DNA of 64,000 nucleotides from Candidatus Berkelbacteria bacterium (GTDB lineage: Bacteria; Patescibacteriota; UBA1384; XYA2-FULL-43-10; CAINNR01), in NCBI GenBank assembly GCA_037142675.1, contig JBAXAF010000003.1, forward strand, positions 3,717 to 67,716, in the 5' to 3' direction. The notes below the pieces were generated by a model. It searched no databases. It saw only the letters and a list, made by a program, of their open reading frames with translations, and was not told the origin of the DNA. Both the position numbers and the translations under genes were made by a program. This document shows positions 27,290-51,067 of the stretch, piece by piece. Position 1 is the stretch's first letter. Every line of letters begins with the position of its first letter.

Positions 27290-28041
27290 TGAAAACACTG
27301 GACGAACAATTCGGTATGCCGGCATGCTTCAACGTTAAGTCGAAGCCGAGTTTGTTTTGCCCTGGTTGCGGCGAAAGCATGATACTAAAACATCTTGGTA
27401 ACGTTATAGATTCTGAAAAAATTGGGTCAAAAATCACACTGGCGATTGATATCGGCTGCACGCTTTTGTCCTGGAACTACTTTAGTTTTGATACCATCCA
27501 AACACATCATGGTCGCTCGGTCCCGGTTTCTGTTGGTTATAAAATGGCAAACGGCAAGAGAATTGTAATTGCGCTAATGGGCGATGGTGGCGCATACGCT
27601 ATTGGCCTTCAGTCTCTTCTGCACGCCGCGTTTCGCAATGATCCGATATTGGCGATTGTTATTAACAATACCGAGTATTCAATGACCGGCGGGCAAATGG
27701 CCCCAACCTCCTTGCCTGGCGAAATTACCGCCACTTCCCCACTCGGCAAAAATGCTAGTATTTTTGGCCCAGCATTTCATGGTCCAGAACTTGTGCGCCA
27801 AATTGCCGCTCCGGGAGCTTTTATCGCACGCGCCACAGTTTCCAACCCAACTATGGTGGAGACTGTTATAGCTAGGGCGATAAATAATCAAATTGAAAAT
27901 AAGAGTTTTTCAATGGTAGAGATCCTTTCAATTTGCCCGACAAATTGGAAGATGAATGCTGCTGAAAGCTTTGAATTCTTAGCCAAGCTGGAAAAAGTTT
28001 ATCCTGTCGGTGAAATTATCAAAAATAAAAATATTAAGTAA
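27289..28041 (+). CDS. 2-oxoacid:ferredoxin oxidoreductase, beta subunit (TPP-binding).
   Basis: FCPGCGES (CPGCG motif) and GDGGAYAIG TPP-binding motif. 250 aa. Confidence 0.8.
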   Translation: MKTLDEQFGMPACFNVKSKPSLFCPGCGESMILKHLGNVIDSEKIGSKITLAIDIGCTLLSWNYFSFDTIQTHHGRSVPVSVGYKMANGKRIVIALMGDGGAYAIGLQSLLHAAFRNDPILAIVINNTEYSMTGGQMAPTSLPGEITATSPLGKNASIFGPAFHGPELVRQIAAPGAFIARATVSNPTMVETVIARAINNQIENKSFSMVEILSICPTNWKMNAAESFEFLAKLEKVYPVGEIIKNKNIK

Positions 28042-28052
28042 ATTTGTTTGTC

Positions 28053-28104
28053 ATTCCGAATTCATCTCGGAATCTCAAAAAAGATCCTGAATCAAGTTCA
28101 GGAT
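28053..28104 (+). other. Two consecutive short hairpins in the korB to gamma-delta spacer.
   Basis: attccga-attcatc-tcggaat (28053-28073) and atcctgaa-tcaag-ttcaggat (28084-28104). Confidence 0.4.
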
Positions 28105-28122
28105 GACGAGAAGCATGACATT

Positions 28123-28947
28123 ATGAAAAATGAAATAACAAAAATTGTTCTTGCTGGTGAAGGTGGTCAGGGTATTCAAACAATTGCCAAGGTTTTGTCG
28201 ACCGCTCTTGTGTCCGCCGGCTACTTTGTCAGCTACATCCCCCAATTCGGTCCTGAGCAACGTGGCACCCCTTCGGTATCATTTATTCAATTCTCCAAGT
28301 CAGAAATTACCTACCCTAAATTCGATACCGCCGACATTGTAATGGTTTTGCGCCGCAGAGCAATTAAAACCATTGAATCCTATGTTGGCCCGAAGACTCA
28401 GTTACTTTTCGATTCATCTACAATTTCTAGACAAAAATTTTCACTTAATAACTCCAGGGTTTTTGCAATACCTGCTACTAAACTTGCCGAGGAGCAATTT
28501 GGCAATAAAAATCAAAATATTTTAGCCCTTGGAGTCTTGGCGAAGAACTTTCTTGATTACCCCAAAAACGCTATGTGGGAGATAATTTCTACTCAGCTCG
28601 GGAAAAAGTTTGCCAAAAATAAGGACTTGGCAGATAAATCAAAGTTAGCCTTTGATTTTGCATATGATTTTCAACTTGAAACTAAGAAATTTACAAAGCC
28701 AGAGTATGATACCTGCGAAGAAATTGTTATTAGAAAAAACTCAGAGCGAACGGCTGTCATTGTGCCGAAGTATTGCAAAGGTTGCGGAATTTGTGTCCTA
28801 AAGTGTCCGGTTAAAGCGCTATCTTTTAGCAAGACCCTGGGTGTGTACGGGACACCAATTCCCGACATTGATATCGAAAAATGTATAGCTTGTGGAAATT
28901 GTTTTCGTTTTTGCCCCGATTCGGCTATTAGAGTTATTAAAAAATAA
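28123..28947 (+). CDS. 2-oxoacid:ferredoxin oxidoreductase, gamma subunit fused to delta (2x[4Fe-4S] ferredoxin). The ORF is open from 28048, but MKNEIT at 28123 is the likely start.
   Basis: IVLAGEGGQGIQT gamma-subunit motif. C-terminal CKGCGICVLKCP and CIACGNCFRFCP ferredoxin motifs. Confidence 0.75.
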   Translation: MKNEITKIVLAGEGGQGIQTIAKVLSTALVSAGYFVSYIPQFGPEQRGTPSVSFIQFSKSEITYPKFDTADIVMVLRRRAIKTIESYVGPKTQLLFDSSTISRQKFSLNNSRVFAIPATKLAEEQFGNKNQNILALGVLAKNFLDYPKNAMWEIISTQLGKKFAKNKDLADKSKLAFDFAYDFQLETKKFTKPEYDTCEEIVIRKNSERTAVIVPKYCKGCGICVLKCPVKALSFSKTLGVYGTPIPDIDIEKCIACGNCFRFCPDSAIRVIKK

Positions 28948-33408: not shown

Positions 33409-36400
33409 TTGGTCGAGTATCTTGGCTTAATAATTTTAAAAAATATGGCTGACTATAGCCAAAAATTTGACGCAAAAGCATATTGGGCAACTAAACCGTT
33501 TTGTTCTGTTTGCAAAAATCACAAGGTGAAAAACGGAACAATTTGTTATAAATGCAAGGGAAATATGGAAAAAAACAAAATAGCTAACACAATTGAAGAG
33601 AGCTTTGATACTGAGGATGAAAAAGCTACATCATCTACTACTACCAAAATTCCTGAGAAATTCTCTCAAATAAAATTTGATAAAAGTTTTATTAAAAAAC
33701 TATTGGACAAACTAAAGGTTGGCAATGCCAGATCGATTCACCTCAACGCGGTTCCTGGTCGATCTGCTACACGATTAGACCTGCACCAGTTATCAGAAAT
33801 TGATCCTGAAATGCCACTCGATTTTATCAAAACTATATTGAACAAAGAAAGCTTCTCATTCTCTATTTCATTTGACAAAATTGATCTAGGAGAGCTGGAA
33901 GATAGTGAGAAGAAAAAACTTGTGCTTATTTCTAAAAGACTAAATGCACTTGTAATAGAAAAAGAAGATAATTTTTTGGAATTTGGTCTCAAGAATTTTG
34001 GTTTTGGTTATCCAATATTAATAAAACGTGACCAAAATGACCCAACAAAAATTATTAAAGCGCCTCTTTTCATCTGGCACTTAGACATCGAAAGATCATA
34101 TCAGAATAAAAATAACTGGACCATTAAAAAAGATGAAGATTCGCCGATCAAGATTAATGAAATACTGATCTCTCACCTCTCAAAAGATGAGTCAGTCAAA
34201 ATAGAAAAAATCTCCCAAGAAATTCTCGAAGATGGAATACTAGATGAGACCGAACTTCTAGAGATGAGTAGCAATATATTGTCGCAACTAAATTCTAAAG
34301 TTGATAATTTATCGATTAGAATAGATAAGTGTCCTGATTCGAAAGAGATTGAAGCAATCGCAAATTCTAAACCATGGATTCAATGGAGTGGAATTTTTGG
34401 GATTTATCGTTCGCAAAATGAAACAATCATCCACTCGACAGAAGAACTGCTTGAGAGATTCGATGAATTTGAAAGTGAAAAGTTGGTATTAGAGCAATTT
34501 CAAACATCCAGCATATCTGCGGTTGAAACTGACCCTAGCAAAGAAGAGATTGTTAACACATTAACGAAAGATGAAATTAAGTTAATCCAGGGGCCACCAG
34601 GAACTGGTAAAAGTCAAAGTATTACAGCTATTGTGTCTAATGCACTTGCAAACAACGCTAAATGTCTTATTGTCTGCGAAAAGAAAACGGCGCTTGATGT
34701 AATAAATGAAAATTTGAAAAAGATTGGGTTGGACAGCTACTCAATCCTTATCGACGATGTTAACAAAGACAGGAAAAAAGTCATCCAAAAAGCACGTGAT
34801 ATTAAAGAATCGCCATATTACCCGTCATTCGCGAGAAAAGATTTTGAAATTAAATATGAAAAATTTTGTGAGCTAAAAAATGATATTAATCTAAAGAGCG
34901 CTGAGACACTTCAAAAAGTTTTAGGAGATATTTCCTGGAAGCAGCTAGTCGGTTTATATTTGAAATTTTCTAAGTCGGGAGATATAGATAAAATTGCTTC
35001 AGAAATTAACTACAGCCAACTAAAATTTGACCACCAAGAATACTCTGACTACCTTGCCATGGTAGAAGAATCCGTTTTTCTTTTTGATGATTTGGAAAAA
35101 AATTCAGAGGAAGTCTTTTCCTTATTGCGCGACACATCGTTTTTAACTCCTTACCGTTCCACTGACAAAGAAAATTTAAAGGATGAAATTGAAATTATTT
35201 CTCAAATTGCAAAATCCTCTGAACAATTTCTGATCAAAAATGCACAGTCTGGTTTCGAAGAAAAAGGAATTTCGTTGTTTAAGCCGAAATCGATCGTAAA
35301 ATGCAAATTGCAATTATCTGAATTGAAACAAGCACTAAAAGAAATTATTGACTTGTATGAGGCCGGGATTAAATTAGTTGGTGATGAGTTTAACAAAAAG
35401 GGCTTGGTCCAAAATGTTAGGTACCAAGTCTCAGCTTTATTTGGCACCAAACATAAAAAAATATATGCTATCAGAAGAAAAATTCCCACATTACTAAAAA
35501 ATGCCACTCAGATTATCTCGGAATTAGAAAAGTTTGGTTTTGGAAACTTAAGCCTAAAAAAATTTGAAGCACACGAGTCGTGCAAAAGCTTAAAAAATAA
35601 TTCTATAGATACTTTAGGGGAAGTCAAAAAAATTGAATCAAAGATAGATCAAATCAAGAAAAATGAAGACGAATTAATAAGCATCTACAAAAAGTTAATG
35701 GAATCTGCAGAAAAAAAGATTTTTGACCTTGATATCAAAAGTTATATTTCCTTAGGAAATCGTGCTCAGCTAGTTAAATTCTTCAAGGACATGGGTGATG
35801 TCATCGAAAATGTTCGTTGCCATTTGGATGCTTACGAGAGTTATCATAACTGGAAATATTTTTGCAGTAATAAGAATAGTCTCGAATTACAGATTCTATC
35901 TGCACTTAAAGATTCTCCGCCAGAAAACTGGAGAAACATTTTTATTGCTTGGTATTATCGTGGAACATTACAAAATTATGAAAATACAACAAAAGTCGGA
36001 TTTCACAAGTCAAATTCTAAATTACAACAGCTATCTGGAGTCTATAATGAGCTCTGTGATTCCCAGATTCAACAAATTAAATCAAATTGGGGAAATAGCA
36101 GAAGCTACCAAATATCCAAAATTGATTATAACTTCAATACCCTATTTAGCTTGAGAAAAAACAACGCGGGGCCAAAAAGTTCGCTTAGAAAAATTATTGA
36201 CAAAGATTTTGATTTATTCACCACTTTGTTTCCAGTTATTTTAACTAACCCTGCAGCTGCAAATGCTATTTTTCCTCTCACCCAGGGATTGTTTAATATT
36301 GTCATCTTTGATGAGGCTAGCCAGTTGAGAATCTCTGACACTTTTACAAGTCTAATCCGCGGACAATATAAAATCATCGCTGGAGATGAACATCAGATGC

Positions 36401-37608
36401 CTCCTTCAAGCTATTTTCAAAGTACTGCTGAGTTGCTAGATAACCCTGAAGGAGAAGAGATTGAGTCAACTGCAGACGAAGATGAGCAAGCGGTTTTAGC
36501 TGAAAGTGAATCCTTGCTTCAATATGCCAGTGATTTAAAGAATGTGAACAAGTCGTACTTGGATTTTCACTACCGCTCAAATCATCCTGCTCTAATCGAC
36601 TTTTCAAACTGCGCTTTTTATGGAGGAAATCTGGTCCCTTTTCCACCGCAAGAAATTTACACCCCAATAGAATTCAGAGCTATCAATGGTCGTTACGAAA
36701 CTAGGACCAACCCATCAGAAGTTATCGAAATAATAAAAATCATCAAGAATGAAATTCATGCTGATCAAAAAGGTAAATACCCATCAGTTGGGATAGCCAC
36801 TTTTAACATAAACCAAAGGAATCTGATTACCGAGGCATTAAATGAATGGGCGGAAAAGGATCCATCTTTTGGCAGAAAACTTCTGGAGTTAAGGGAGTGT
36901 GGTTTGTTCGTAAAGAATTTGGAAAATATTCAAGGTGACGAAAAAGACATTATCATTATCTCAACTACTTATGGGATTCAAGAAGACGGAAGTTTTTCGC
37001 AGAATTTTGCGAGACTAAATAGAATTGAAGGCTATAAATTGCTGAATGTTCTAATTACCAGAGCTAAGCACAAACTTTATGTTTGCACTTCAATTCCAAA
37101 AGAAAAATATCTTTCTTATGCTGACATTATACAAAACGAGGGAAATAACAAAAAGGGCATTCTGTACGCCTATCTTGCATATGCCGAAGCAGTCTCAAGC
37201 CATAATACCGAATCAGCAGAAGGAATTTTAAGAACATTAAAAGAATACAGTTATGAAAAACCTAGAATTATTTCGAACTCAGATGGTCTTTCCGAGTCCC
37301 CATTTGAAGAAGAAGTCTACGAGATGCTTTGTGACCAATTCAAGGCTGAAAATGTAATCCAGCAACATAAGATTGGTGGTTTTCGCCTAGATTTTGTCAT
37401 TAAAGCAAAATCAACAGATATTGTCCTGGAATGTGACGGGAAAGCATATCATCAGTCCGAAGAAGCGTACGCTCATGACATGTACCGACAAAAGGAGCTC
37501 GAGAAACTAGGTTTTGTGGTTTACAGAATCTGGTCAACAAACTGGTTTCAAGACAAGGAAATTGAAATGCAAAAACTAGTCAGATTTGTCGAATCTAAAA
37601 GCCAGTGA
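33409..37608 (+). CDS. SF1 (DNA2/Upf1-like) helicase with an N-terminal Cys-rich region, a DUF4011-like domain and a C-terminal DUF559/Vsr-like (PD-(D/E)xK) endonuclease domain. It is a helicase-nuclease and a candidate defence protein (Hhe-like architecture). The likely start is MADYSQ at 33445.
   Basis: Walker A LIQGPPGTGKSQSITAIV, Walker B-like IVIFDEASQL, motif VI-like LNVLITRAKHKL. The C-terminal GGFRLDFVIKAKSTDIVLECDGKAYHQS...YRIWSTNWFQDKE matches the DUF559/Vsr-like endonuclease consensus. N-terminal CSVC...CYKC. Confidence 0.7.
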   Translation: MVEYLGLIILKNMADYSQKFDAKAYWATKPFCSVCKNHKVKNGTICYKCKGNMEKNKIANTIEESFDTEDEKATSSTTTKIPEKFSQIKFDKSFIKKLLDKLKVGNARSIHLNAVPGRSATRLDLHQLSEIDPEMPLDFIKTILNKESFSFSISFDKIDLGELEDSEKKKLVLISKRLNALVIEKEDNFLEFGLKNFGFGYPILIKRDQNDPTKIIKAPLFIWHLDIERSYQNKNNWTIKKDEDSPIKINEILISHLSKDESVKIEKISQEILEDGILDETELLEMSSNILSQLNSKVDNLSIRIDKCPDSKEIEAIANSKPWIQWSGIFGIYRSQNETIIHSTEELLERFDEFESEKLVLEQFQTSSISAVETDPSKEEIVNTLTKDEIKLIQGPPGTGKSQSITAIVSNALANNAKCLIVCEKKTALDVINENLKKIGLDSYSILIDDVNKDRKKVIQKARDIKESPYYPSFARKDFEIKYEKFCELKNDINLKSAETLQKVLGDISWKQLVGLYLKFSKSGDIDKIASEINYSQLKFDHQEYSDYLAMVEESVFLFDDLEKNSEEVFSLLRDTSFLTPYRSTDKENLKDEIEIISQIAKSSEQFLIKNAQSGFEEKGISLFKPKSIVKCKLQLSELKQALKEIIDLYEAGIKLVGDEFNKKGLVQNVRYQVSALFGTKHKKIYAIRRKIPTLLKNATQIISELEKFGFGNLSLKKFEAHESCKSLKNNSIDTLGEVKKIESKIDQIKKNEDELISIYKKLMESAEKKIFDLDIKSYISLGNRAQLVKFFKDMGDVIENVRCHLDAYESYHNWKYFCSNKNSLELQILSALKDSPPENWRNIFIAWYYRGTLQNYENTTKVGFHKSNSKLQQLSGVYNELCDSQIQQIKSNWGNSRSYQISKIDYNFNTLFSLRKNNAGPKSSLRKIIDKDFDLFTTLFPVILTNPAAANAIFPLTQGLFNIVIFDEASQLRISDTFTSLIRGQYKIIAGDEHQMPPSSYFQSTAELLDNPEGEEIESTADEDEQAVLAESESLLQYASDLKNVNKSYLDFHYRSNHPALIDFSNCAFYGGNLVPFPPQEIYTPIEFRAINGRYETRTNPSEVIEIIKIIKNEIHADQKGKYPSVGIATFNINQRNLITEALNEWAEKDPSFGRKLLELRECGLFVKNLENIQGDEKDIIIISTTYGIQEDGSFSQNFARLNRIEGYKLLNVLITRAKHKLYVCTSIPKEKYLSYADIIQNEGNNKKGILYAYLAYAEAVSSHNTESAEGILRTLKEYSYEKPRIISNSDGLSESPFEEEVYEMLCDQFKAENVIQQHKIGGFRLDFVIKAKSTDIVLECDGKAYHQSEEAYAHDMYRQKELEKLGFVVYRIWSTNWFQDKEIEMQKLVRFVESKSQ

Positions 37609-37621
37609 ATAGTGCAAGATT

Positions 37622-39157
37622 ATGATAAATATTTACGTTACTGCCTCAAAACTTTATGATTATATTCAGTGTCCGCATAAAGTATGGCGGGATATTTACG
37701 GTCCGCAGAATGAAAAAATTGTCGAATCCAATCCTTTCATTGAGCTACTCTGGAAAAAGGGAATCCAACATGAAAAAAGGGTTGTCTCTGGCATAGGCAG
37801 CTTTTTAGATTTGAGCCAAGGGGATCTTGATGAAAGATTTAAAAAAACCCTAGAAGCTCTCAAAAATCATACGCCGCTGATTTACCAGGGTGTGATAAAA
37901 TATGGCAACTTATTCGGCATTCCAGATTTGCTGGAGCTAATGCCGGATGGCACTTATGTACCCATTGATATAAAATCTGGGTCTGCTTATGAAGGTGAAG
38001 ATGAAGAGCAAGATGCTGAAGGTAAACCAAAGTTGCATTACGCTGTCCAGCTGTGCCTTTATAACGACGTTTTGAAAAAGCTTGGGTTTGCCAATCATAA
38101 CAATGGCCAAGTTATTGATATTCGCCTTGATAAAGATGAATACAATCTTGTTGCACCTAAAGGGACAAGAGACAAAACAACTTGGTGGGATAATTACGAG
38201 AAGATTAAAAATGATGTCTGGCTGCTACTTAATGATGAAATAAGAAACAAACCGTCATATTCAGGTAAATGTAAATTATGCCCCTGGTACAAAAGTTGTA
38301 AAAACTGGTGTCAGGAAACGAACGATTTAACCAATATCTTTAATCTTGGAAGAGCCAACCGCGATAGAATCAACGAAGATCTTGGTATAGATAATCTGAC
38401 AGATTTGATGTCGGTTGATATTCCGTCCGTGATGGAAAAAAAAGAGTTGGAAAAAAAATCGGGCGATAAGAATTTTCTATTCAGAATTTCCGATAATACC
38501 CTGGAAAAGGCAGTTGAAAGGGCTAGAGTCTCACTAATTACAAAAAAACCAGTAATCTATCAACCAGAGGTATTCCCTGATGTCAGTTATGAATTATTCT
38601 TTGATATTGAAGACGATCCAACTCAAGAATTTGTCTATCTACACGGTGTATACGAAAGGCACAATCAAGAGGAACGGTTTCTGGATTTTACTGCTAGAGA
38701 AATAAGTTCTGCAGCTGAAAAAGCTGCTTGGTCAGATTTTTGGCAATATATTGAATCACTTCCCCAAGATGACTATTCTGTATACTATTATTCACATCAC
38801 GAAAAGACAACTTACAAAAGGATGCAGAAACTGTACCCGGATGTAATTTCCGCGAAAAAACTAGAAGAGTTTTTTGACAATCCAAATGTTATCGATCTAT
38901 ATAGCGTCATTCGCTCTAAAACTAATTGGCCGCTTCCAAGTTATTCCCTAAAGGAAATCGCTGTTTACCTCGGTTTTAAATGGAGAGATGAAACGCCATC
39001 TGGCGCGCTCTCAATCCAGTGGTTCAATAATTATATTGAACAGAAAGATCCTGAAATTCTTAAGAGGATTCTGCTTTACAACGAAGACGATTGCAAAGCG
39101 ACAATGGTTATCAAGGATGCGATCGTTAATCTAGAAATAACAGAAAGGATTATATGA
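37622..39157 (+). CDS. RecB/Cas4-like PD-(D/E)xK nuclease with C-terminal Cys cluster, fused to a predicted PolB-like 3'-5' exonuclease (RNase H-like) domain. TM0106-type architecture.
   Basis: N-terminal YDYIQCPHKVW, GIPDLLE...PIDIKSG (D..E.K), CKLCPWYKSCKNWC cysteines. The C-terminal ELFFDIEDDP...VYLHGV motif is typical of RNase_H_2-like exonuclease domains. Confidence 0.6.
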   Translation: MINIYVTASKLYDYIQCPHKVWRDIYGPQNEKIVESNPFIELLWKKGIQHEKRVVSGIGSFLDLSQGDLDERFKKTLEALKNHTPLIYQGVIKYGNLFGIPDLLELMPDGTYVPIDIKSGSAYEGEDEEQDAEGKPKLHYAVQLCLYNDVLKKLGFANHNNGQVIDIRLDKDEYNLVAPKGTRDKTTWWDNYEKIKNDVWLLLNDEIRNKPSYSGKCKLCPWYKSCKNWCQETNDLTNIFNLGRANRDRINEDLGIDNLTDLMSVDIPSVMEKKELEKKSGDKNFLFRISDNTLEKAVERARVSLITKKPVIYQPEVFPDVSYELFFDIEDDPTQEFVYLHGVYERHNQEERFLDFTAREISSAAEKAAWSDFWQYIESLPQDDYSVYYYSHHEKTTYKRMQKLYPDVISAKKLEEFFDNPNVIDLYSVIRSKTNWPLPSYSLKEIAVYLGFKWRDETPSGALSIQWFNNYIEQKDPEILKRILLYNEDDCKATMVIKDAIVNLEITERII

Positions 39158-41743: not shown

Positions 41744-42225
41744 AAAAACTGAGCTTAAAAAATATATATAGCAATTACAATTTCAGAGTAGTTTTTATAT
41801 TACTAACAGTCACTTTGACCATATATTTGCTGGCGAGTGCTTATGTAAAATATTTTGAGGTTGAAGAGATAGGTCATCAACATGAAAAAAATAGTTATTC
41901 AGTTCACTACTTGATTAATATTTTTCCAGAGGTTTCAGATCAACCACTGGTTGTTGACGAGATGCCCATAGTGTCTGATACAGAAAAACAGAGAGCAATA
42001 GGCTTCATTGTTAGAGATTGCGAAGAAAGTGTCTGTCCGCTTTATAGACTGATAACTGCGGAGCTGCCGTCTGGTGAAGTTATAAATTTCCAAGGAAAAA
42101 CAGGTAGTGGTGCTGTTGAATGTTACCTGAATGAATCACTAGATTTCCAATCAAAAGATGTATGTCTCGATACTAATGGCAAGGGCTGGGGGGTTCAATT
42201 AATTGAAAAGTCGACAATTAAATGA
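41689..42225 (+). CDS. Membrane-anchored hypothetical protein. The start is uncertain (ATG at 41716 or GTG at 41740).
   Basis: TM helix VVFILLTVTLTIYLLASAYV followed by a Cys-containing extracytoplasmic domain. Confidence 0.4.
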   Translation: MENRQRVSAMPEGTRHKVKKLSLKNIYSNYNFRVVFILLTVTLTIYLLASAYVKYFEVEEIGHQHEKNSYSVHYLINIFPEVSDQPLVVDEMPIVSDTEKQRAIGFIVRDCEESVCPLYRLITAELPSGEVINFQGKTGSGAVECYLNESLDFQSKDVCLDTNGKGWGVQLIEKSTIK

Positions 42226-43028
42226 GCAAACTCCAAGAGAGTAATTTTATAAAAATGTTTGGCGGCAGAACTTTTTCTTCCGAGGAAGAAATGGAAGCTT
42301 TTGTTGTTGCTAAATTGCCAAGTATTTTAGAGGTTGGAGATGGTTTTGTTGTACAACAAGATTACGCGACTGGCACCAGCGGACTACATAGCAAAAGAGC
42401 TGATATTGTCATCAAAAATTCCAGGGGAGATATTCTAGTTGTTTTTGAACTGAAAAGGAGTTACTGGCTCCGATTTGGAGATCAACGGAATAATGCGAAA
42501 CAGCAACTAATGGACTACTGCCAAAGGTTCGGTGCTCCTTATGGGGTGATACTATCTGAAAAGTATTGCTACATAATGGCCATCCACCCTGACGGTGCTT
42601 GCAAGCAAGTGTCAGCCTTACCGCCAATTCAAGAGATACAACCACGCCAGGCTATCAATTTTGGGCCTGAGATTAACAAAGCCCAAAGACAAATTTCTGT
42701 TTCGGCTGAGGCTGCCAGTCGGGAGATCCATCAGGGAATTGATGATCAAGCCAGGAAGGCCCTGAAAAAATACACGATTATTGGGATTACTCTTGTGATT
42801 CTGTTCTTCGCTGGTCTGGCTGTTTGGACTTATCAAACCAAAATGTTCACCTGTGAAAATATCAAAGGTAATATGTCCATGACTAACGGCCAGACGTCAA
42901 AGATCTACCATACAAGGGAGAGCAATTTTTATGACAAGGTAAAGATTGATACTGCTCAGGGAGATAAGGTCTTCTGCAGTGAAGCTGATGCCTTGAATGC
43001 TGGGTTTCGAAAGGCTATCAACAAGTAG
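42222..43028 (+). CDS. Restriction-endonuclease-like (PD-(D/E)xK, HsdR-N-like) domain protein with a central TM helix and a conserved C-terminal module (YHTRESNFY...FCSEADALNAGFRKA).
   Basis: RADIVIKNSRGDILVVFELKRS matches the D...(E/D)xK nuclease-fold core. TM IIGITLVILFFAGLAVW. C-terminal module of unknown function. Confidence 0.45.
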   Translation: MSKLQESNFIKMFGGRTFSSEEEMEAFVVAKLPSILEVGDGFVVQQDYATGTSGLHSKRADIVIKNSRGDILVVFELKRSYWLRFGDQRNNAKQQLMDYCQRFGAPYGVILSEKYCYIMAIHPDGACKQVSALPPIQEIQPRQAINFGPEINKAQRQISVSAEAASREIHQGIDDQARKALKKYTIIGITLVILFFAGLAVWTYQTKMFTCENIKGNMSMTNGQTSKIYHTRESNFYDKVKIDTAQGDKVFCSEADALNAGFRKAINK

Positions 43029-43152
43029 ATCAAATAATTCTAGCATTTATAGCTATAGCTTAAAATTACAGAGCTTTGCCGGTGATCTCGCAGAAGACTG
43101 GAAAAATTGGCGAAGAATAAATTTAACAGCATTAAATTGGTAGGAGTTCAAA

Positions 43153-43311
43153 ATGGTTTTCTTTATTATCTGGGTTGTAGCACTAGCTTTCATTTTGCCT
43201 GATAGCTGGGGTTGGGTGAATTATTTGTTAGGACCAATTTTGGCAATACCACTCGCTTATTTAACAGGTCTAACAATAGGATCATTATTTGCTAAATTTG
43301 ATAAAAAATGA
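43153..43311 (+). CDS. Small hydrophobic membrane protein (52 aa). Not in the ORF track.
   Basis: RBS aggag, then ATG. Two predicted TM segments. Its stop overlaps the next gene's start (ATGA). Confidence 0.35.
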   Translation: MVFFIIWVVALAFILPDSWGWVNYLLGPILAIPLAYLTGLTIGSLFAKFDKK

Positions 43312-43775
43312 CAATACACCTAGGGAAACCTGATTACAAATGCTCAAAATGCGGTGAGATTTTTTTCCCGTATAAGATTGATATTGAATGTCCTAATTGC
43401 GGAATAACTATTCCAAGCAGTGAAGCTAAAAATTATTTTGATTCAATCAAGGAAATAGCCAAGTCAATGAAGATACATAAATGCCTATACGGTAGGTTCG
43501 TTCCATGGTCTTGGTCTTATGCCAACACGGGAGACCATATTCAGGATTTACTCTTCCAACTTTTTGATTTACTTGAAGCTAAAAAACCAAAGAATGAAGA
43601 GAAATTTATAACTGAGACACTTGAAAACGATTTTGACTGGGGCGACAAGGAATATTTAAAAAAACATATTGGAAATATAGCCGTAGACCTTTTGCCTATT
43701 TATAATGGAATGATAAAAAACATCTCAGCCAAAGAAAAATTAAAAATAAATGATTCATACGGCATTCCATTTTAG
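43308..43775 (+). CDS. Hypothetical zinc-ribbon protein.
   Basis: CSKCGEIFF...CPNCG at the N-terminus. Otherwise no recognised motif. Confidence 0.35.
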   Translation: MTIHLGKPDYKCSKCGEIFFPYKIDIECPNCGITIPSSEAKNYFDSIKEIAKSMKIHKCLYGRFVPWSWSYANTGDHIQDLLFQLFDLLEAKKPKNEEKFITETLENDFDWGDKEYLKKHIGNIAVDLLPIYNGMIKNISAKEKLKINDSYGIPF

Positions 43776-43947
43776 TTCCAAGAAGAATCATCACACAGCA
43801 AAACTTTTAATTCGCATCTCTGGGATATAGACAAGTTCTTTTGATTCCATTATAATAGTTCTGACACGCAATACTGCGTTCCACCAAGAATGGGTTGTAA
43901 AGGCTAAGACGTCCCAATGGGTCGGGATCCCGTTGGTGTGGGACAAG

Positions 43948-43964
43948 TCCAGTACGGCCCACCA
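43948..43964 (+). repeat. att-like direct repeat of the tRNA-Ala 3' end (17 of 18 nt), putative island right boundary.
   Basis: tccagtacggcccacca versus tccagtacggtccacca at 29999-30016. Confidence 0.55.
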
Positions 43965-44208
43965 TGAAAAGTTCGTCATTTATGATGAGCTTTTTTGGTG
44001 GATAGGTCTGATAGAAAAAGATTTATTAATTTTAACGCCTCAATGGATTAAGCCGTAAAAAGACTTTATCGCTAAACTCGTACCTAGTTGGGGAGTGTCT
44101 CTGGAGGGATTTAGGCGGACGATTTGCATACCAACTTGGGCGAGACAAATTTAAGTGCATTACTACAAGTAAGGTATAATTAATATAAATCAAGAAAAAA
44201 CTAATTTT

Positions 44209-44754
44209 ATGAAGCGGCAAATAAATTTACATAAGAGGTTTTTGTTAATTCTCGCGATTGCATGCACATGTATTGCAATATCTATTTTCTATGGTAAAAA
44301 TGAGGCAAGTAAAACCTTAAACCAAGAAACTGTTAACCGTGTCGATTTTTCGCTGGAAATTCCCAAGCTCAGTATTGTCGTCCCAGTAATAACTGGAATT
44401 GATCCAGCCAAGAAGGATATTTACAACGAAGCCTTAACAAGCGGAGTCGCACACATGAATGGTATGTCCTTTCCAGGGCAGGGAGGTAATGTTTTTATCT
44501 ACGGGCATTCCTCGGCAGAAAAAGCAAGTAAGTATCAAAAGGTTTTTGCTAATCTCTCAAATTTGGATAATGGTGATCTGTTAATTTTAAACTACAGAGG
44601 AATAGGATATAATTACACTGTAAAGGAAAAGAAGATCGTCGAAAAGGATGATTTTTCAGTATTGGACAAAACAGATCATGAACAGCTGTCATTGATGACT
44701 TGCTGGCCAATTGGTACAAACGAAAAGCGTCTAATTGTCGTGGCTGACTTGTAA
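44209..44754 (+). CDS. Sortase-family transpeptidase (second copy).
   Basis: TM anchor. NVFIYGHS (catalytic His) and QLSLMTCWP (TLxTC) motifs. Confidence 0.75.
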   Translation: MKRQINLHKRFLLILAIACTCIAISIFYGKNEASKTLNQETVNRVDFSLEIPKLSIVVPVITGIDPAKKDIYNEALTSGVAHMNGMSFPGQGGNVFIYGHSSAEKASKYQKVFANLSNLDNGDLLILNYRGIGYNYTVKEKKIVEKDDFSVLDKTDHEQLSLMTCWPIGTNEKRLIVVADL

Positions 44755-44769
44755 AAACAGGAGGAAATT

Positions 44770-46455
44770 TTGAAGAAGGTAATATTGTATTTAGTTGCGA
44801 CATTTTTATGTTTCGGTATTTATCTGATTTCGGCAAAAGCATCGGTTAGTTTCAGTGCTACATTCGATAGCGGATTTGACGCAGACTCAGGAGCTGACAA
44901 GACAGCTTTTACTGACGGATCACTTCCTTCTCTTGTGACTGGGTATGGCGGGACTGGCCAGGCGATTAAAAATACCTTTGGAACGACCCTTAAGTACAAG
45001 ACCAGCAATCTAAACAGCCAAAAAGATTCTATCTCTTTTAAATTTCAACTCCCATTTGATCTAAAAACAGACAAGGACATCGGAAGAATCGGTGGTAGTA
45101 GCTCACACATAGATGTGAGCGAGACTTCGGGCTACACGTATATTGCTGATTTTGTCGCCGAACAGATAATCAGAACTAAAATTGATGGAACTGGCTGGAA
45201 GAGGCTCGGCGATTATGGCACAAGCGGTGATGGAAAATTTAACTTTTGCTGGCGTGGGGATGTTAGCGTGGACTCAAGAGACGAAACCTTATATATTACC
45301 GACTCATGTAACAAGAGAATTATTAAAACAAAAATGGATGGCTCCGATTGGCAAGCATATCCTATTGGTGCTTACAGTCCGGCACAAATTTTTTATGATA
45401 AGGTCTCTGATGAAATATATTTTTATGATGAAGGTGGGGATCAGGTAGTAAGCACAAAATTTGGTTCTGACGTTTTTAACGCAGTATCTCTAAGCGGAGT
45501 CTCTGCGTATATGACAGATTTTATATATGATAGCGCCGGAGGATTCATTTACCTTCTGGATGGAGGCGCTTCAAATCTCTCCCGAATCAAAATGGATGGG
45601 AGTGGCCTGGCGGCATTTGGTTCTTCTGGTAGCGGTATTGATGAGTTTGATTCACCTTATGCTCTCGATTACGACGGAACATACTTTTATATTATGGATG
45701 AGTATAATTCTCGCATCGTAAAGACTCAATTTGATGGCACTGGTTGGCAGACCTATGGCAGTCAGGGCCTAGGAGAGGGTAAATTCAATGACGCTACCAG
45801 CATGGCGTATGATGAAAATAGTGGAGATATCTTCGTATTGGATAACCAGGACAGATATACAAACAATTCTCTTTTGATAAAAACCAAAATCGATGGAAGC
45901 AGTTGGCAATCATTTGCTACTCAGGGAGTGGGAAGTATTAATGACCTTGACTCAATGATTTATGACAACAATACCGGCTACTATTATTTTGCAGGTGGGT
46001 ACAATTCAGTAATTAGAACAAAGAAGGACGGAACCGACTGGTCAATAGTTGGTACTCATGGCGACGGGCAAGACCCATTTAGCTTTGGTTACGTCACAGG
46101 TATTGATGTTGATAAGTCTAATTCAGACGTCTACACAATAGATCACTATGCCGATCAGATTTCCAAGTTTAAGATGAACGAAAGTGAGTGGTCTACTTGG
46201 GCGGGACCAATCCCGGGTGGAGGTAGCGATTTTTCAGTACCAAGAGGTATTAGTTTGGATCAGGCAAATAAAATTTTATACGTTGGCGACATGGATCATC
46301 ATAGAATCGTAAAAACTAAAATGGATGGTAGCCTCTGGGAAACATACGGGACCCTTGGAAGCGGTGTCGGGCAATTCAACTACCCGATGAACGTGTACTA
46401 CGACCCAATTACTGAGTATGTTTATGTTTCGGATGACGGTAATCCACGTATCTAA
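44770..46455 (+). CDS. Secreted NHL-repeat beta-propeller protein. It is the N-terminal part of a larger gene interrupted by an in-frame TAA at 46453-46455.
   Basis: Signal peptide MKKVILYLVATFLCFGIYLISAKA. At least 8 repeats of the form N.RI.KTKMDGS.W..YG..G.G.G.F..P. The ORF ends ...GNPRI*. Confidence 0.65.
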   Translation: MKKVILYLVATFLCFGIYLISAKASVSFSATFDSGFDADSGADKTAFTDGSLPSLVTGYGGTGQAIKNTFGTTLKYKTSNLNSQKDSISFKFQLPFDLKTDKDIGRIGGSSSHIDVSETSGYTYIADFVAEQIIRTKIDGTGWKRLGDYGTSGDGKFNFCWRGDVSVDSRDETLYITDSCNKRIIKTKMDGSDWQAYPIGAYSPAQIFYDKVSDEIYFYDEGGDQVVSTKFGSDVFNAVSLSGVSAYMTDFIYDSAGGFIYLLDGGASNLSRIKMDGSGLAAFGSSGSGIDEFDSPYALDYDGTYFYIMDEYNSRIVKTQFDGTGWQTYGSQGLGEGKFNDATSMAYDENSGDIFVLDNQDRYTNNSLLIKTKIDGSSWQSFATQGVGSINDLDSMIYDNNTGYYYFAGGYNSVIRTKKDGTDWSIVGTHGDGQDPFSFGYVTGIDVDKSNSDVYTIDHYADQISKFKMNESEWSTWAGPIPGGGSDFSVPRGISLDQANKILYVGDMDHHRIVKTKMDGSLWETYGTLGSGVGQFNYPMNVYYDPITEYVYVSDDGNPRI

Positions 46456-46464
46456 AGGTTCAAA

Positions 46465-47253
46465 ATGGATGGAGGTCCAGTAGGCTGGGAAACACTTAAC
46501 ACATCTGCATATAGTAGCTGGGGGCTAGACTTTGTTGTATTGAAAGGCACCGATTACGTATTAGTTGGTGATTACGCTAATAATAGAATTGTTAAGCAAA
46601 AAATGAATGGCACGGACGTAACCTATATCGATTATTCTCTCTGGGGAAGTGACCTGGGCAATGGTATGACTCCGACTTATTTTGATAGTGATTCTGACAC
46701 TTTATTTTTCTCTGATGCAAGGAACATATACAGAACCACGATAGCTGGAGAGTTGATCGAAACGGTTAGCGGGACTCCAAGTAAAGTCTTGTTTAAAACA
46801 AGTGGATCCAAGCCATTCGAAATAGGTGTTTCTGCTTATTCTGGACAGTTTAGCCTAAGTTTAAACAGTTACAAATTACCAATTTCATATTCACAAGCGA
46901 AATCACTGGCCGCTGGTAGCTGGCATGATATGCATATTAATTACGATCGCTCAACAGGTACTGTCGAGGCGTATTTGGACAGCGAGACGATACCTTTTAT
47001 CACTCAAACTGGGTTAGGTACAGGGTCGGAAATTGGTGACTATTTTTACCTAGGATCTGACCCAACTGACCCCAATAGAACTTTTTCTGGGGCCATAGAC
47101 AATATTCAGTTCGGACTGCCTGATCCAGATAACACTGCCGCTGATCCGGCCGCAAACACAGCTCCTTCAATGTCGATTTTGCCAGAGACCGGACGCGCCA
47201 AAAGGCCAGCTGGTTTACTAAAAAAATTCGTCTTAATGTTCCGAAGTCCATGA
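46465..47253 (+). CDS. C-terminal continuation of the NHL-repeat protein: further NHL repeats, a LamG/ConA-like lectin-fold domain, and an LPETG sortase sorting motif.
   Basis: Same frame as 44770..46455, separated by TAA and 9 nt. RFKMDGGPVGWE continues the repeat. The GSWHDMHINYDRSTG...FSGAIDNIQF segment is LamG-like. C-terminal SILPETGRAKRPAGLLKKFVLMF. Confidence 0.6.
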   Translation: MDGGPVGWETLNTSAYSSWGLDFVVLKGTDYVLVGDYANNRIVKQKMNGTDVTYIDYSLWGSDLGNGMTPTYFDSDSDTLFFSDARNIYRTTIAGELIETVSGTPSKVLFKTSGSKPFEIGVSAYSGQFSLSLNSYKLPISYSQAKSLAAGSWHDMHINYDRSTGTVEAYLDSETIPFITQTGLGTGSEIGDYFYLGSDPTDPNRTFSGAIDNIQFGLPDPDNTAADPAANTAPSMSILPETGRAKRPAGLLKKFVLMFRSP

Positions 47254-47501
47254 TCTATACAGGCAAAACTTGCCAAATGCTACTGGCAATTTCACGATAA
47301 ATATAATTTTGGTAAGCCGTAGTTGGTAATAAACTCGTTAAACTGCCATCGTATAATTAGTCTTGCAAAGATTATTAAAAACTAAAACTTCTCAAGCAAA
47401 AGTTGGAAATCCAGGTCATTTTCTGCTAGAATACACTCATTAGAACGTCAATCCAGATAAGCGAGTGTTCAAATGAAAGTGCTCAAGTCCACCAAAATAT
47501 T

Positions 47502-50306
47502 ATGAAAGATGCTGATAAAAAGAACTTTTACTGCCTAGATATGTTCCCGTATCCATCGGGAAGTGGTTTGCATGTTGGCCACCCTCGTGGTTATACAGCT
47601 ACCGATGTTTACTCGCGGTTCAAAAAACTCCAGGGTTTTAATGTTATCCACCCCATGGGTTGGGATGCTTTCGGACTTCCTGCGGAAAATTACGCTATTA
47701 AAAACAAAACTCACCCATCTAAGGTTGTCGAAGAAAATGTTGCTCACTTTAAATCTCAACTAGAAAAGTTTGATCTTTCATATGATTGGGAAAAAGAAGT
47801 AAATACCACTGACCCAAAATATTATCGTTGGACGCAATTCATTTTTCTTAAATTGTTTGAACGCGGTTTGGCCTATGAAGCTGAAGTGCCAATCAACTAC
47901 TGCCCATCTTGTAAAACCGGCTTAGCCAATGAGGAAGTTGTTGGCGGAAAATGCGAGCGTTGTGGAACTGCAGTCGAGAGAAAAAATATTCGCCAGTGGA
48001 TTTTGAAAATCACTGAATATGCAGATCGCCTATTGGAAGATTTGGATGGCCTGGATTGGCCAGAACCAATTAAAGAAATGCAAAAAAATTGGATTGGGCG
48101 AAGCGAAGGGAGCAATATTCGCTTCGAGCTTAAAGCGAAAAGCGAAAAGCGAAAAGCTGTGGAGTCGCTAAGCGATGACTATTTTATTGAAGTTTATACC
48201 ACCAGGGCTGATACTTTATACGGTTGCACCTGGGTGGTTTTGGCACCTGAACACATATTAGTTGACAAGTTAAAAGTTGAAAGTGAAAATCAAGAAGAAA
48301 TTAATGAGTATATTCAGAAATCCAAAAACAAATCAGATCTCGAACGAACGGAATTACAAAAAGAAAAAACTGGCGTCGAGCTAAAAGGCATCAAGGCAAT
48401 TAATCCTATAAATGGCAAGGAAGTTGCTGTTTGGGTTGCCGATTATGTCTTGGGCCATTATGGAACTGGTGCGGTAATGGCCGTCCCTGCTCACGATGAA
48501 CGTGACTTCGAATTTGCTAAAAAATATGACATTGATATTATCCAAACGATTGCGCCGCAAGTTACATATTATAAAACTCCACCAAAGGATGGTTTGCCAT
48601 ACGTTGAGAGAAACAGCATCGAAGTCATAGTCCGCGACCCAAAAACTGATAAATACCTTTGTCTAGAGTGGAAGAACCAGCCTTGGACAACATTTGTCAC
48701 CGGTGGTGTTGACGACGGTGAAGATTATCTAAGTGCTGCAAAACGCGAATTTCTAGAAGAAACCGGTTACAAGAACATTAAACTCATAAAATCTCTTGGC
48801 AGAACTCGGGCGGTTTTTCACGCTGCACACAAAAATGAAAATCGAGTTGGTAATATGGAAGGTTTTCTTTTTGAGCTAGTTGATGATGAGCGAAATGATA
48901 TGTCAAGTGACGAAAAAGCCATCCATGAAGTTATTTGGCTTTCGCGTGACGAATTAAAAATTGAGCGCATTGTTTGCGCTAGCTTTGAATACTGGATGCG
49001 CGGAATTGATGACAAGAGAAAAGCAATTGAAGACTACGGATATTTGGTAAATTCTGAGGAATTTAATGGCCTTTCATCTGCTGATGCCAAAAAGAAAATT
49101 ACTGAAAAACTAAAAGAATCTGGTCACGGGGATTTTACCGTTAACTACAAACTTCGTGATTGGGTTTTTTCTCGCCAGCGATATTGGGGCGAGCCAATTC
49201 CTATTGTTCATTGCGAAAAGTGTGGTATTGTTGCTGTTCCCGAAACAGATTTGCCGGTGCTTTTGCCTCATGTTGAAAAGTATGAGCCGACCGGCGATGG
49301 CACATCTCCCCTGTCTAACGAGTCTGATCCTGCAATTGCGGCTTGGCTCAATACCACATGCCCAGAGTGCGGTGGAAAAGCAAAACGTGAAACTAATACA
49401 ATGCCGCAGTGGGCCGGAAGTTGCTGGTACTATATCGCCTACCTGATGAAAACTGGTGATGAATATGTTTGGGATCGCGACAAAATTGACCCCTGGTTGC
49501 CAGTGAATTTATACGTCGGCGGCGCAGAACACGCAGTTCTGCATTTACTTTACTCCAGATTCTGGCACAAGGTTTTGTATGATGAAAAACTAGTTGGTAG
49601 CATTGAGCCATTCCAAAAGTTAATATCAGTCGGAACTATTTTGGGAATTGATGGTGTTAAAATGTCCAAATCGCGAGGTAATGTTATTGACCCTGATCCA
49701 CTGATTGAGAAATTTGGTTCCGACGCTTTAAAAATGTATGAACTCTATATTGGCCCGTTTTCACAACCAGCAAAATGGAGTCAAAATGGAATTGTTGGTA
49801 TGCACCGGTTTCTACAAAAAGTTGAAAAAATTTCAGATGCCGAAATCTCCGAATCAAATTCGAAAAATCTAGTGCCGATTAACAAAGCAATTAAGAAAGT
49901 TGCTGGGGATATTGAAAGTTTTAGCTTCAACACTGCGATTAGCACCTTAATCGAAACATTTGATCTTATTTCGACCAACAGTTGGGATAAACCATCAGCT
50001 GAAATATTTTTAACGCTCCTGTCCCCCTTCGCGCCGAAAATGGCCGAGCAAGTATCGCAAAAAATTGGAATTCAAATACCAATTTGGCCGGAATTCGATC
50101 CGAAGTACATCGCTGATGATAAAGTTACTATTGCTATCCAAATCAATGGAAAAGTTCGCGATCAAATTGAGATCGCAATTGATGAACCAGAGGAAAAAGT
50201 TAAGGAGTTAGTTTTAGAGAGAGAAAAGATAAAAAGCTGGATTTTAGAAGCTAAAATAAAGAAATTTATCTATGTTCCAGGCAAAATCATTAGTATTGTG
50301 GTCTAG
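47502..50306 (+). CDS. leuS: Leucyl-tRNA synthetase, with a roughly 150-aa insertion containing a complete NUDIX domain.
   Basis: HIGH region (HVGHPRGY). Editing domain (...AVPAHDERDFEFAKKYDIDI). Then an inserted segment with a perfect Nudix box GGVDDGEDYLSAAKREFLEETGY. Then canonical NYKLRDWVFSRQRYWGEPIPIVHCEKCG, a KMSKS-type VKMSKSRGN, and the anticodon-binding domain. Confidence 0.9.
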   Translation: MKDADKKNFYCLDMFPYPSGSGLHVGHPRGYTATDVYSRFKKLQGFNVIHPMGWDAFGLPAENYAIKNKTHPSKVVEENVAHFKSQLEKFDLSYDWEKEVNTTDPKYYRWTQFIFLKLFERGLAYEAEVPINYCPSCKTGLANEEVVGGKCERCGTAVERKNIRQWILKITEYADRLLEDLDGLDWPEPIKEMQKNWIGRSEGSNIRFELKAKSEKRKAVESLSDDYFIEVYTTRADTLYGCTWVVLAPEHILVDKLKVESENQEEINEYIQKSKNKSDLERTELQKEKTGVELKGIKAINPINGKEVAVWVADYVLGHYGTGAVMAVPAHDERDFEFAKKYDIDIIQTIAPQVTYYKTPPKDGLPYVERNSIEVIVRDPKTDKYLCLEWKNQPWTTFVTGGVDDGEDYLSAAKREFLEETGYKNIKLIKSLGRTRAVFHAAHKNENRVGNMEGFLFELVDDERNDMSSDEKAIHEVIWLSRDELKIERIVCASFEYWMRGIDDKRKAIEDYGYLVNSEEFNGLSSADAKKKITEKLKESGHGDFTVNYKLRDWVFSRQRYWGEPIPIVHCEKCGIVAVPETDLPVLLPHVEKYEPTGDGTSPLSNESDPAIAAWLNTTCPECGGKAKRETNTMPQWAGSCWYYIAYLMKTGDEYVWDRDKIDPWLPVNLYVGGAEHAVLHLLYSRFWHKVLYDEKLVGSIEPFQKLISVGTILGIDGVKMSKSRGNVIDPDPLIEKFGSDALKMYELYIGPFSQPAKWSQNGIVGMHRFLQKVEKISDAEISESNSKNLVPINKAIKKVAGDIESFSFNTAISTLIETFDLISTNSWDKPSAEIFLTLLSPFAPKMAEQVSQKIGIQIPIWPEFDPKYIADDKVTIAIQINGKVRDQIEIAIDEPEEKVKELVLEREKIKSWILEAKIKKFIYVPGKIISIVV

Positions 50307-50402
50307 CGCTTGATTTTTTCGTCATTTTTTGTCATACTGCAATAGTAAATTCAATCATTTTAAATTTTGATTTTTAAATTATAAATTGGAGCTTAAGCGA
50401 TC

Positions 50403-50612
50403 ATGGCCGAACCAAAAAAGAAATTATCAAAAACAAGAACTCGCAGTCGTCGACACCAAATTAAACATAATGAAGTTGGTATTGTTTATTGTGACCAATG
50501 TCATGCGCCTATGCAGCGACACCACATCTGCAAGAATTGTGGAACCTATCGCGGCAAAAAAGTAGTTGACTCAGAAGAAAAAGTTGAAGCTGCACCAGCC
50601 AGTAAAGAATAA
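50403..50612 (+). CDS. rpmF: 50S ribosomal protein bL32.
   Basis: N-terminal PKKKLSKTRTRSRRHQ and the CDQC...CKNCGTYRGKKV zinc ribbon. Confidence 0.75.
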   Translation: MAEPKKKLSKTRTRSRRHQIKHNEVGIVYCDQCHAPMQRHHICKNCGTYRGKKVVDSEEKVEAAPASKE

Positions 50613-50632
50613 TTTGTAAGGAGTGGGATACT

Positions 50633-51067
50633 ATGAATAGACATCTTTCTCGCATGGTTGCGATGCAGGCTATATATGAGTGGAACTTTCGTCCGGATGC
50701 TGATCTAAATGAAATTCTCGAGCGTTCAATCGCTGAGTTTGCTGATGATATTGACAAAGATTTTGTTAAGTCAGAAATTATTGGTGTCAGTAAAAACAGA
50801 GAAGAGCTGGACAAAGAAATAGCTATTAGCGCTCCCGAGTGGCCTATTGAACAAATCTCGATGATTGATAAATCGATTTTAGAAATTGCGATTTTTGAAC
50901 TTTTATATTCTAGCGATGTGCCACCAAAAGTATCAATTAATGAAGCCATTGAATTGGCAAAACAGTTTGGAAATAACAACTCTGGTAAGTTCATCAACGG
51001 AGTACTTGGTACAATTTACGACAAGCATATTGAGACAATAAAGAAAAAGGAACTTGGTAATGAATGA
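50633..51067 (+). CDS. nusB: Transcription antitermination factor NusB.
   Basis: 144 aa all-helical. N-terminal SRMVAMQAIYEW, typical of NusB. Confidence 0.75.
   Translation: MNRHLSRMVAMQAIYEWNFRPDADLNEILERSIAEFADDIDKDFVKSEIIGVSKNREELDKEIAISAPEWPIEQISMIDKSILEIAIFELLYSSDVPPKVSINEAIELAKQFGNNNSGKFINGVLGTIYDKHIETIKKKELGNE

Follow-up and report, generated by a model that had tools for sequence, protein, structure and literature searches.

Dedicated sortase operons, in which the enzyme is encoded beside the proteins it acts on, are exemplified by the pilin-polymerising SrtC and by the Bacillus class D sortase with its adjacent substrates. In Staphylococcus aureus, the sorting of protein A by SrtA relies on a canonical tripartite signal, in which an LPXTG motif is followed by a hydrophobic segment and a charged tail. 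In the premature-stop inlA alleles of Listeria monocytogenes, a nonsense mutation lies upstream of LPXTG. In this study, we describe a two-gene cassette, made up of a sortase gene and the gene of an LPETG protein that is interrupted by a single in-frame TAA, in a 64,000-nucleotide stretch of DNA (the window) that belongs to a metagenome-assembled genome (MAG). We propose, with a probability of roughly three in four, that the TAA is a recent, population-fixed nonsense mutation in the sortase substrate gene, which would be a young pseudogene formed through ordinary gene decay.

The sortase of the cassette shares the His, Cys and Arg residues and the N-terminal membrane anchor with its S. aureus counterpart, and the substrate resembles those of S. 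aureus in its signal peptide and in an invariant C-terminal LPXTG that follows a variable linker; however, the hydrophobic segment of the canonical signal is absent. With the class C and class D sortase operons of Firmicutes and Actinobacteria, which provide the best matches among hidden Markov models (HMMs) and Protein Data Bank (PDB) structures, the cassette has in common that the sortase abuts its substrate and that the pairing outlasts the gene neighbourhood, but the class cut-offs are not reached, the sortase has no C-terminal anchor and the substrates are not pilins. As in the inlA alleles, one nonsense mutation removes the anchor signal and is fixed in a natural population, whereas the truncation in the cassette also destroys two domains. 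Judged by these comparisons, the cassette resembles a dedicated class C/D sortase operon in the way it works, and the stop itself is an ordinary pseudogene lesion.

One gene interrupted by a TAA codon

The source MAG carries the NCBI label Candidatus Berkelbacteria (locus tags WCG99_), and among species-representative genomes the nearest orthologues of the substrate are labelled Candidatus Saccharibacteria; on the basis of these labels, we place it in the Patescibacteria, or candidate phyla radiation (CPR). NCBI lists three products for the cassette (MEI8060906.1 to MEI8060908.1), which correspond to the sortase and to two open reading frames (ORFs), here called ORF A and ORF B. The initial annotation, made from the sequence of the window, had described a sortase gene with a signal-peptide substrate 15 nt downstream, and one in-frame TAA (46453-46455) after which the frame resumes 9 nt on. 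The ORF coordinates bear out both statements (Table 1), and the three products match PF04203, PF01436 and PF13385, respectively. Reading across the break gives ...GNPRI*RFKMDGGPVGWE. A scan of positions 43700-47600 for promoters and terminators returned the counts expected from shuffled sequence.

A search with the merged protein, i.e. ORF A continued into ORF B, found five uninterrupted proteins (P0002-P0006) of 803-831 residues, with 43-50% identity over 96-98% of the query, and scans of genomes and metagenomes yielded two more intact orthologous genes (L004 and L030). We compared nine further orthologues (43-60% identity), seven of which cover the aligned stop position. All seven read through, with Asp, Thr, Ala, Ile or Val in the stop column (codons GCT, ACC, GTC, GTT and ACT), and because they do so, ORF A and ORF B are, on the evidence of the alignment, one gene. 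The stop column is followed by an invariant Arg-Phe-Lys and then by Met or Phe (alignment A1). The ATG at 46465, which opens ORF B, is the conserved Met of this RFKM repeat motif and, judging from its place in the alignment, is not a dedicated start codon. The initial annotation had proposed looking for a sense codon at this position in related genomes and had named orthologues that are uniformly two separate genes as the observation that would speak against a disrupted gene; what we observe is that six of the seven are intact single genes, while the seventh, P0007, has a TAA of its own near its 5' end.

The part before the stop shares 42-51% identity with the orthologues and the part after it 44-51%, as do the orthologues among themselves, and the 265 codons 3' of the stop stay open, with no second lesion. 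Since identity reaches only about 50% even with the nearest orthologue, synonymous sites are saturated, and we compared identities in place of the ratio of nonsynonymous to synonymous rates (dN/dS). The equal identity before and after the stop, together with the absence of a second lesion, suggests a mutation that is recent within the resolution of these data, and a downstream frame that is both open and conserved can hardly be due to chance.

The TAA is reproducible and is not an assembly error. It is present in 6/6 separately assembled contigs that were inspected (L001 and L033-L037, from JGI 3300021473, ENA ERZ27300140/176/181 and Logan SRR7053514/SRR7053539), representing three pipelines (JGI, ENA and Logan) and at least two sequencing runs. 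The JGI contig, 8.7 kb long, is 100% identical to positions 42008-50678 of the window, and ORF B is recorded as a separate gene of 262 residues on nine contigs. At least two haplotypes carry the stop, with two of the contigs (L033 and L034) adding a G>T single-nucleotide polymorphism (SNP) at 46522, which is the only polymorphism seen across the gene among the contigs of this organism. The SNP lies 3' of the stop and affects a residue for which four of six aligned orthologues have Gly, but one SNP cannot show relaxed selection. Another protein record, P0033, was considered as a strain variant and rejected, for it differs only in the translation of the TTG start.

A second lineage, represented by P0007 (loci L031 and L038-L040), has an orthologue that reads ...KDSV-TAA-FKFQLPF, so that its TAA cuts the signal peptide off from the remaining sequence, in a column that is Ser, Phe, Asn or Glu in relatives. 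This stop was found in all four loci that were read, of six contigs in three samples that record the same split gene. A single in-frame TAA is present in two of the nine near-full-length orthologues. Because the two TAAs occur at different positions (codon 562 and codon 94), the alignments argue for recurrent knock-out and not for a shared recoding signal. TAA is also the nonsense codon to be expected in an AT-rich genome.

Domain architecture and the probable effect of the stop

The initial annotation had called for HMM searches with two families, and both matched above cut-off: NHL (PF01436) on ORF A (E 5e-11, 42.4 bits against a cut-off of 20) and Laminin_G_3 (PF13385) on ORF B (E 1e-7, 32.7 bits against 27.6), the latter ORF also matching Laminin_G_2 (E 4e-5). 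The NHL-type repeats were recognised correctly there, but their number, given as at least 8, was an undercount, as the repeat table of the merged sequence contains 12 units, 42-53 residues apart, of the type xRIVKTKxDGxxW. Nine repeats precede the TAA, which falls within the motif of the tenth. In the AlphaFold2 (AF2) model, the predicted local distance difference test (pLDDT) is 80-93 across the repeat region, and the best Foldseek matches of the full-length model are tandem six-bladed propellers (LRP4 and LRP6 E1E2); the twelve blades apparently form two six-bladed propellers.

A conserved N-terminal region of 80 residues flanks the repeats in all homologues, the 1400-residue paralogues included, and in paralogues of 1100-1440 residues N-terminal and C-terminal jelly-roll pieces flank variable numbers of blades. 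When residues 24-106 and 666-790 are joined and modelled with the full-length homologues as alignment, the chimera folds as one domain (pLDDT 82, predicted template modelling score 0.81) and matches single-domain ConA-like/LamG structures over 190-215 of 208 columns, with template modelling (TM) scores of 0.5-0.62. Because of this, the twelve blades appear in the models to be nested inside a LamG/ConA-like jelly roll, which is made discontinuous by their insertion after its first third. HMM searches with the chimera showed a Laminin_G_3 match that did not extend into the N-terminal piece, and weak matches of Polysacc_lyase and Lectin_L-type that spanned the junction; a PDB profile search for a split LamG domain gave a weak match to laminin LG. 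The top structural matches are LRP6 E1E2 and LRP4 for the propellers and neurexin, the thrombospondin-1 N-domain and AbnA domain 4 for the jelly roll. The cassette protein differs from them in that the propeller pair is apparently inserted in the jelly roll, and with identities of only 9-17% the likeness is one of fold and carries no functional inference. A nested propeller-in-jelly-roll layout would explain the fragmentary picture that domain searches give of this NHL/LamG family.

The same MAG also encodes, outside the window, a 1440-residue paralogue (P0012, WCG99_04985) with 30% identity, which carries NHL repeats, split LamG pieces and fibronectin-type domains and whose C-terminus is a hydrophobic ...LNNLFGWLGKVM helix without LPXTG.

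The ancestral cassette would have consisted of two genes, for a membrane-anchored sortase and for its dedicated substrate, the latter a single secreted protein of about 827 residues with a signal peptide, a jelly roll interrupted by twelve blades, a linker and the C-terminal LPETG. To judge from its signal peptide, the substrate would be exported by the Sec pathway, and by analogy with known enzymes the sortase would cleave LPETG between Thr and Gly and attach the threonine either to the cell envelope or to some other protein. A point mutation would then have turned codon 562 into TAA, with the allele becoming fixed in the sampled population. Translation would end inside blade 10, so that the pathway, whose break is shown at the DNA level, would fail at the substrate and leave the sortase without a neighbouring one. 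The 561-residue product would be without three blades, two thirds of the jelly roll and the LPETG, keeping one propeller and half of the second, and any restart at the ATG 9 nt on would give a product that, for lack of a signal peptide, remains cytoplasmic. The initial annotation had expected the short product to lose both LamG and LPETG; the loss of LPETG stands, whereas that of LamG is only partial, with one third of the jelly roll kept. Given the modelled domain layout, the 561-residue product most likely cannot fold or be anchored, which would amount to a loss of function.

Alternatives to a nonsense mutation

Several points weigh against a simple knock-out. The absence of decay downstream of the stop and the intact sortase would also fit continued selection, e.g. 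through leaky readthrough, and the second lineage with its own TAA exceeds what is expected if pseudogenes arise at an assumed background rate of a few percent. The support for the TAA comes from assembled contigs, with which low-level readthrough or a minor intact allele stays compatible, and the independence of the six contigs is uncertain, since some ENA assemblies may share runs with the Logan ones. In addition, the alignments behind the AlphaFold predictions for the nested-domain model are shallow (7 and 12 sequences). The initial annotation had left the choice between a nonsense mutation, a sequencing error and programmed readthrough, and of these the first fits, the second is contradicted by the contigs and the third found no positive support.

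In the case of leaky or programmed readthrough, a fraction of ribosomes would pass the TAA and make the full-length, sortase-anchored protein, whose use would be reduced or regulated. An intact downstream part that is as conserved as the upstream part, a sortase that is itself intact, and a second lineage whose gene likewise has one in-frame TAA and an otherwise intact remainder (six contigs) are what one would expect under such a mechanism, but the two stops lie at unrelated positions and neither is conserved in other orthologues: the TAA does not recur at the same position in the seven orthologues covering the site, and that of the second lineage is at a different codon, where the short product would be a meaningless fragment of 93 residues. 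The genetic code is standard. TAA is the commonest stop among the 53 long ORFs of the window (TAA 30, TGA 12, TAG 11), and a same-frame adjacency scan of these long ORFs revealed no other split gene in the window. No RNA structure was detected 3' of the stop, where the sequence is less structured than shuffled controls (z = +2.2), and the window encodes two tRNAs only, tRNA-Leu(CAA) and tRNA-Ala(GGC). UAA is the least leaky stop in bacteria, which also counts against it. We consider readthrough unlikely on these grounds.

The only other same-frame adjacency outside the cassette, 27289-28041 with 28048-28947, was examined as a second split gene and rejected, as the two are ordinary 2-oxoacid:ferredoxin oxidoreductase subunits. 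Inside the cassette, the sortase and ORF A share a frame, yet they are two genes.

The truncated protein of 561 residues might instead be the selected product, with a change from a wall-bound to a released form as in the inlA alleles of L. monocytogenes. Such selection would account for the fixation of the allele in all sampled contigs and for the signal peptide and strong ribosome-binding site that ORF A retains, and the inactivation that recurs in the second lineage hints that the full-length surface protein is selected against. The product would, however, contain an incomplete second propeller and the first third of a jelly roll, which makes stable folding doubtful, and a stop after residue 93 in the second lineage cannot yield a functional secreted protein. 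A selected truncation is thus quite improbable.

We see very little prospect for two genuine genes, in which a secreted propeller protein (ORF A) would be followed by a LamG-LPETG protein translated from the ATG at 46465 by termination-reinitiation. The position of the ATG 9 nt past the stop, an AAGG 7 nt upstream of it and the two separate proteins in the NCBI annotation would suit this arrangement, but no orthologue is divided at this position, the six intact orthologues of the seven covering it are single genes, and the ATG encodes the conserved Met of the repeat motif. Furthermore, the lack of a signal peptide in ORF B would keep its LPETG away from an extracellular sortase; the stop also cuts through a propeller blade and would part the two halves of one jelly-roll domain. 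Lastly, a sequencing or assembly error masking a sense codon in the true genome deserves almost no credence, having in its favour just the prior that applies to any single-base lesion in a MAG, against a TAA found by three pipelines in at least two runs and on a variant haplotype, with ORF B recorded separately on nine contigs.

A recent nonsense mutation, fixed in the population, is the reading that we retain for the stop.

The sortase and a sorting signal without a membrane segment

The sortase matches PF04203 (E 1e-27, 96.7 bits against a cut-off of 26.6) and the NCBIfam model TIGR01076 (73.4 bits against 39.35), and its catalytic residues, His100, Cys165 (in LMTCWP) and Arg174, are invariant in the five sortases aligned (alignment A3). 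When scored against the NCBIfam models for classes C, D, E and F, it stays below every class cut-off, including those of class C (NF033745, 71.6 bits against 160) and class D (NF033746 and NF058671, 77.6 bits against 165 and 84 against 140). Its NCBI name, 'class D sortase', is not backed by the NF033746 and NF058671 cut-offs, while among solved structures it comes closest to class C sortases (E about 1e-10).

The sortase abuts the orthologous substrate gene in six of the eight loci with a readable neighbourhood, once on the opposite side, and this adjacency upholds the sortase-substrate pair that had been proposed in the initial annotation. At the seventh locus the sortase is 2.3 kb off, and a search of the 4 kb around the eighth revealed none. 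The wider neighbourhoods of the pair are completely different between loci. From the adjacency and the conservation of the motif, we infer that the adjacent sortase acts on this LPETG. The LPXTG is invariant while the linker before it is unconserved, which points to selection on the motif. The A-K-A cleavage motif of the substrate signal peptide is likewise kept, or nearly so, in the orthologues (AKA, ANA or TKA).

All ten orthologues end 1-19 residues past LP[EKA]TG without a hydrophobic stretch. The longest uncharged run after LPXTG is 5 residues in the cassette and at most 9 in 13 related substrates, compared with 21 in P0010, a 30%-identical homologue that has a textbook signal (LPESG, 21 uncharged residues and KYRKRRGS). 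Of 13 tails, 7 have an Arg or Lys among their first 3 residues (RAKR, SAR, TRN, RF.., KSTH, R and RK), others being just L or TD. No hidden hydrophobic segment was found downstream in any frame (in the window, L002, L003 and L004), and ORF B matches none of the NCBIfam anchor models. On other Patescibacteria contigs, homologous sortases with 47-56% identity are followed by unrelated signal-peptide proteins, and three such proteins, two with Big_7 domains and one a NosD beta-helix protein (Table 1), have tails of 1-12 residues. The atypical sorting signal noted in the initial annotation is therefore real, being conserved in ten orthologues and three unrelated proteins, and by this distribution it is a family trait and not decay in this genome.

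Schneewind and co-workers reportedly found in 1992-93 that deleting the hydrophobic and charged part of the signal in S. aureus leads to secretion and not to anchoring. Because the tail deletion has this effect in S. aureus, either the retention of the substrate or the reaction itself would have to differ in the cassette. We tentatively suggest, as a possibility with somewhat less than an even chance, that a Patescibacteria-specific sortase subfamily uses a minimal signal, LPXTG plus 1-19 residues without a membrane segment, on unrelated ectodomains (NHL/LamG, Big_7 and NosD beta-helix).

A literature search on sortase signals in Saccharibacteria and Patescibacteria and on LPXTG without a hydrophobic domain found nothing specific, the papers noting just that CPR genomes encode a sortase.

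Table 1. Features of the sortase cassette and of related loci (positions in the window unless a locus is named)
Feature	Position	Strand	Remarks
Sortase gene	44209..44754	+	181 residues, N-terminal membrane anchor; Pfam Sortase E 1e-27
Ribosome-binding site AGGAGG of substrate gene	44759..44764	+	5 nt before TTG start; read from sequence
ORF A (NHL substrate, 5' part)	44770..46455	+	TTG start, 561 residues, 15 nt past sortase stop
Putative signal peptide of substrate, MKKVILYLVATFLCFGIYLISAKA	44770..44841	+	Sequence and alignment A1; cleavage site judged by inspection
LamG/ConA-like jelly roll, N-terminal third (residues 25-106)	44842..45087	+	Chimera model
NHL-type repeats 1-9 and first residues of repeat 10	45097..46452	+	Repeat table, PF01436, AF2, Foldseek
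Premature in-frame TAA, codon 562	46453..46455	+	Inside repeat-10 motif (PRI*RFKMDG); six contigs
Remainder of repeat 10 and repeats 11-12, 3' of stop	46456..46764	+	Alignment A1, repeat table
ORF B	46465..47253	+	Same frame as ORF A, ATG 9 nt past TAA, 262 residues
SNP G>T (Gly>Trp)	46522	+	L033 and L034 versus window; both also carry TAA
LamG jelly roll, C-terminal two thirds (merged-protein residues 666-790)	46765..47139	+	Laminin_G_3, Laminin_G_2, chimera model
Variable Pro/Ala/Thr-rich linker	47140..47178	+	Length and sequence unconserved in A1
LPETG sortase motif	47179..47193	+	L, P, T and G invariant in all orthologues
19-residue tail RAKRPAGLLKKFVLMFRSP and TGA	47194..47253	+	Without membrane-spanning segment
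Second in-frame TAA	L031 3582-3584		After residue 93; also in L038, L039, L040
Big_7 protein	L043 5146-7041		Ends LPETGR; beside homologous sortase, abutting
Big_7 protein	L045 5163-6623		Ends LPATGRK; beside homologous sortase, abutting
NosD beta-helix protein	L044 5727-8399		Ends LPETGVDKYLFWAMGLV; one small gene past homologous sortase

Two other regions of the window are of note. The leucyl-tRNA synthetase (LeuRS) gene at 47502-50306 (+; 934 residues) encodes a NUDIX hydrolase domain at residues 372-487 (E 3e-13), directly past a segment that matches the LeuRS editing domain in part (profile positions 1-145 of 185), and this architecture is annotated on every contig of the organism; in a literature search on LeuRS and Nudix, the top-ranked matches made no mention of Nudix. 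At 33409-39157 (+), a 1399-residue AAA_11/AAA_12 helicase that bears an MTES_1575/DUF559 endonuclease domain at its C-terminus precedes a 511-residue PD-(D/E)XK and RNase_H_2 protein, and these helicase-nuclease genes look like a defence or repair pair.

For annotation, these results mean that MEI8060907.1 and MEI8060908.1 are to be read as halves of one disrupted gene and not as a 'hypothetical protein' and a 'LamG protein', and that predictors of sortase substrates that look for the tripartite signal will miss thirteen sortase-linked LPXTG proteins of uncultured Patescibacteria. If these proteins are true substrates, then the rule that a hydrophobic segment and a charged tail hold the precursor fails in these ultrasmall cells, and the sortase would capture its substrate otherwise, be it at the translocon, via an uncleaved N-terminus, or through ligation to a protein partner and not to lipid II. 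On this view, the two lineages with TAA alleles would represent repeated knock-outs of one such substrate. For the attachment of these episymbionts to their hosts, surface proteins rank among the foremost candidates, and wall-anchored proteins, one of which would have been knocked out repeatedly in nature, offer targets for work in the few cultivable relatives.

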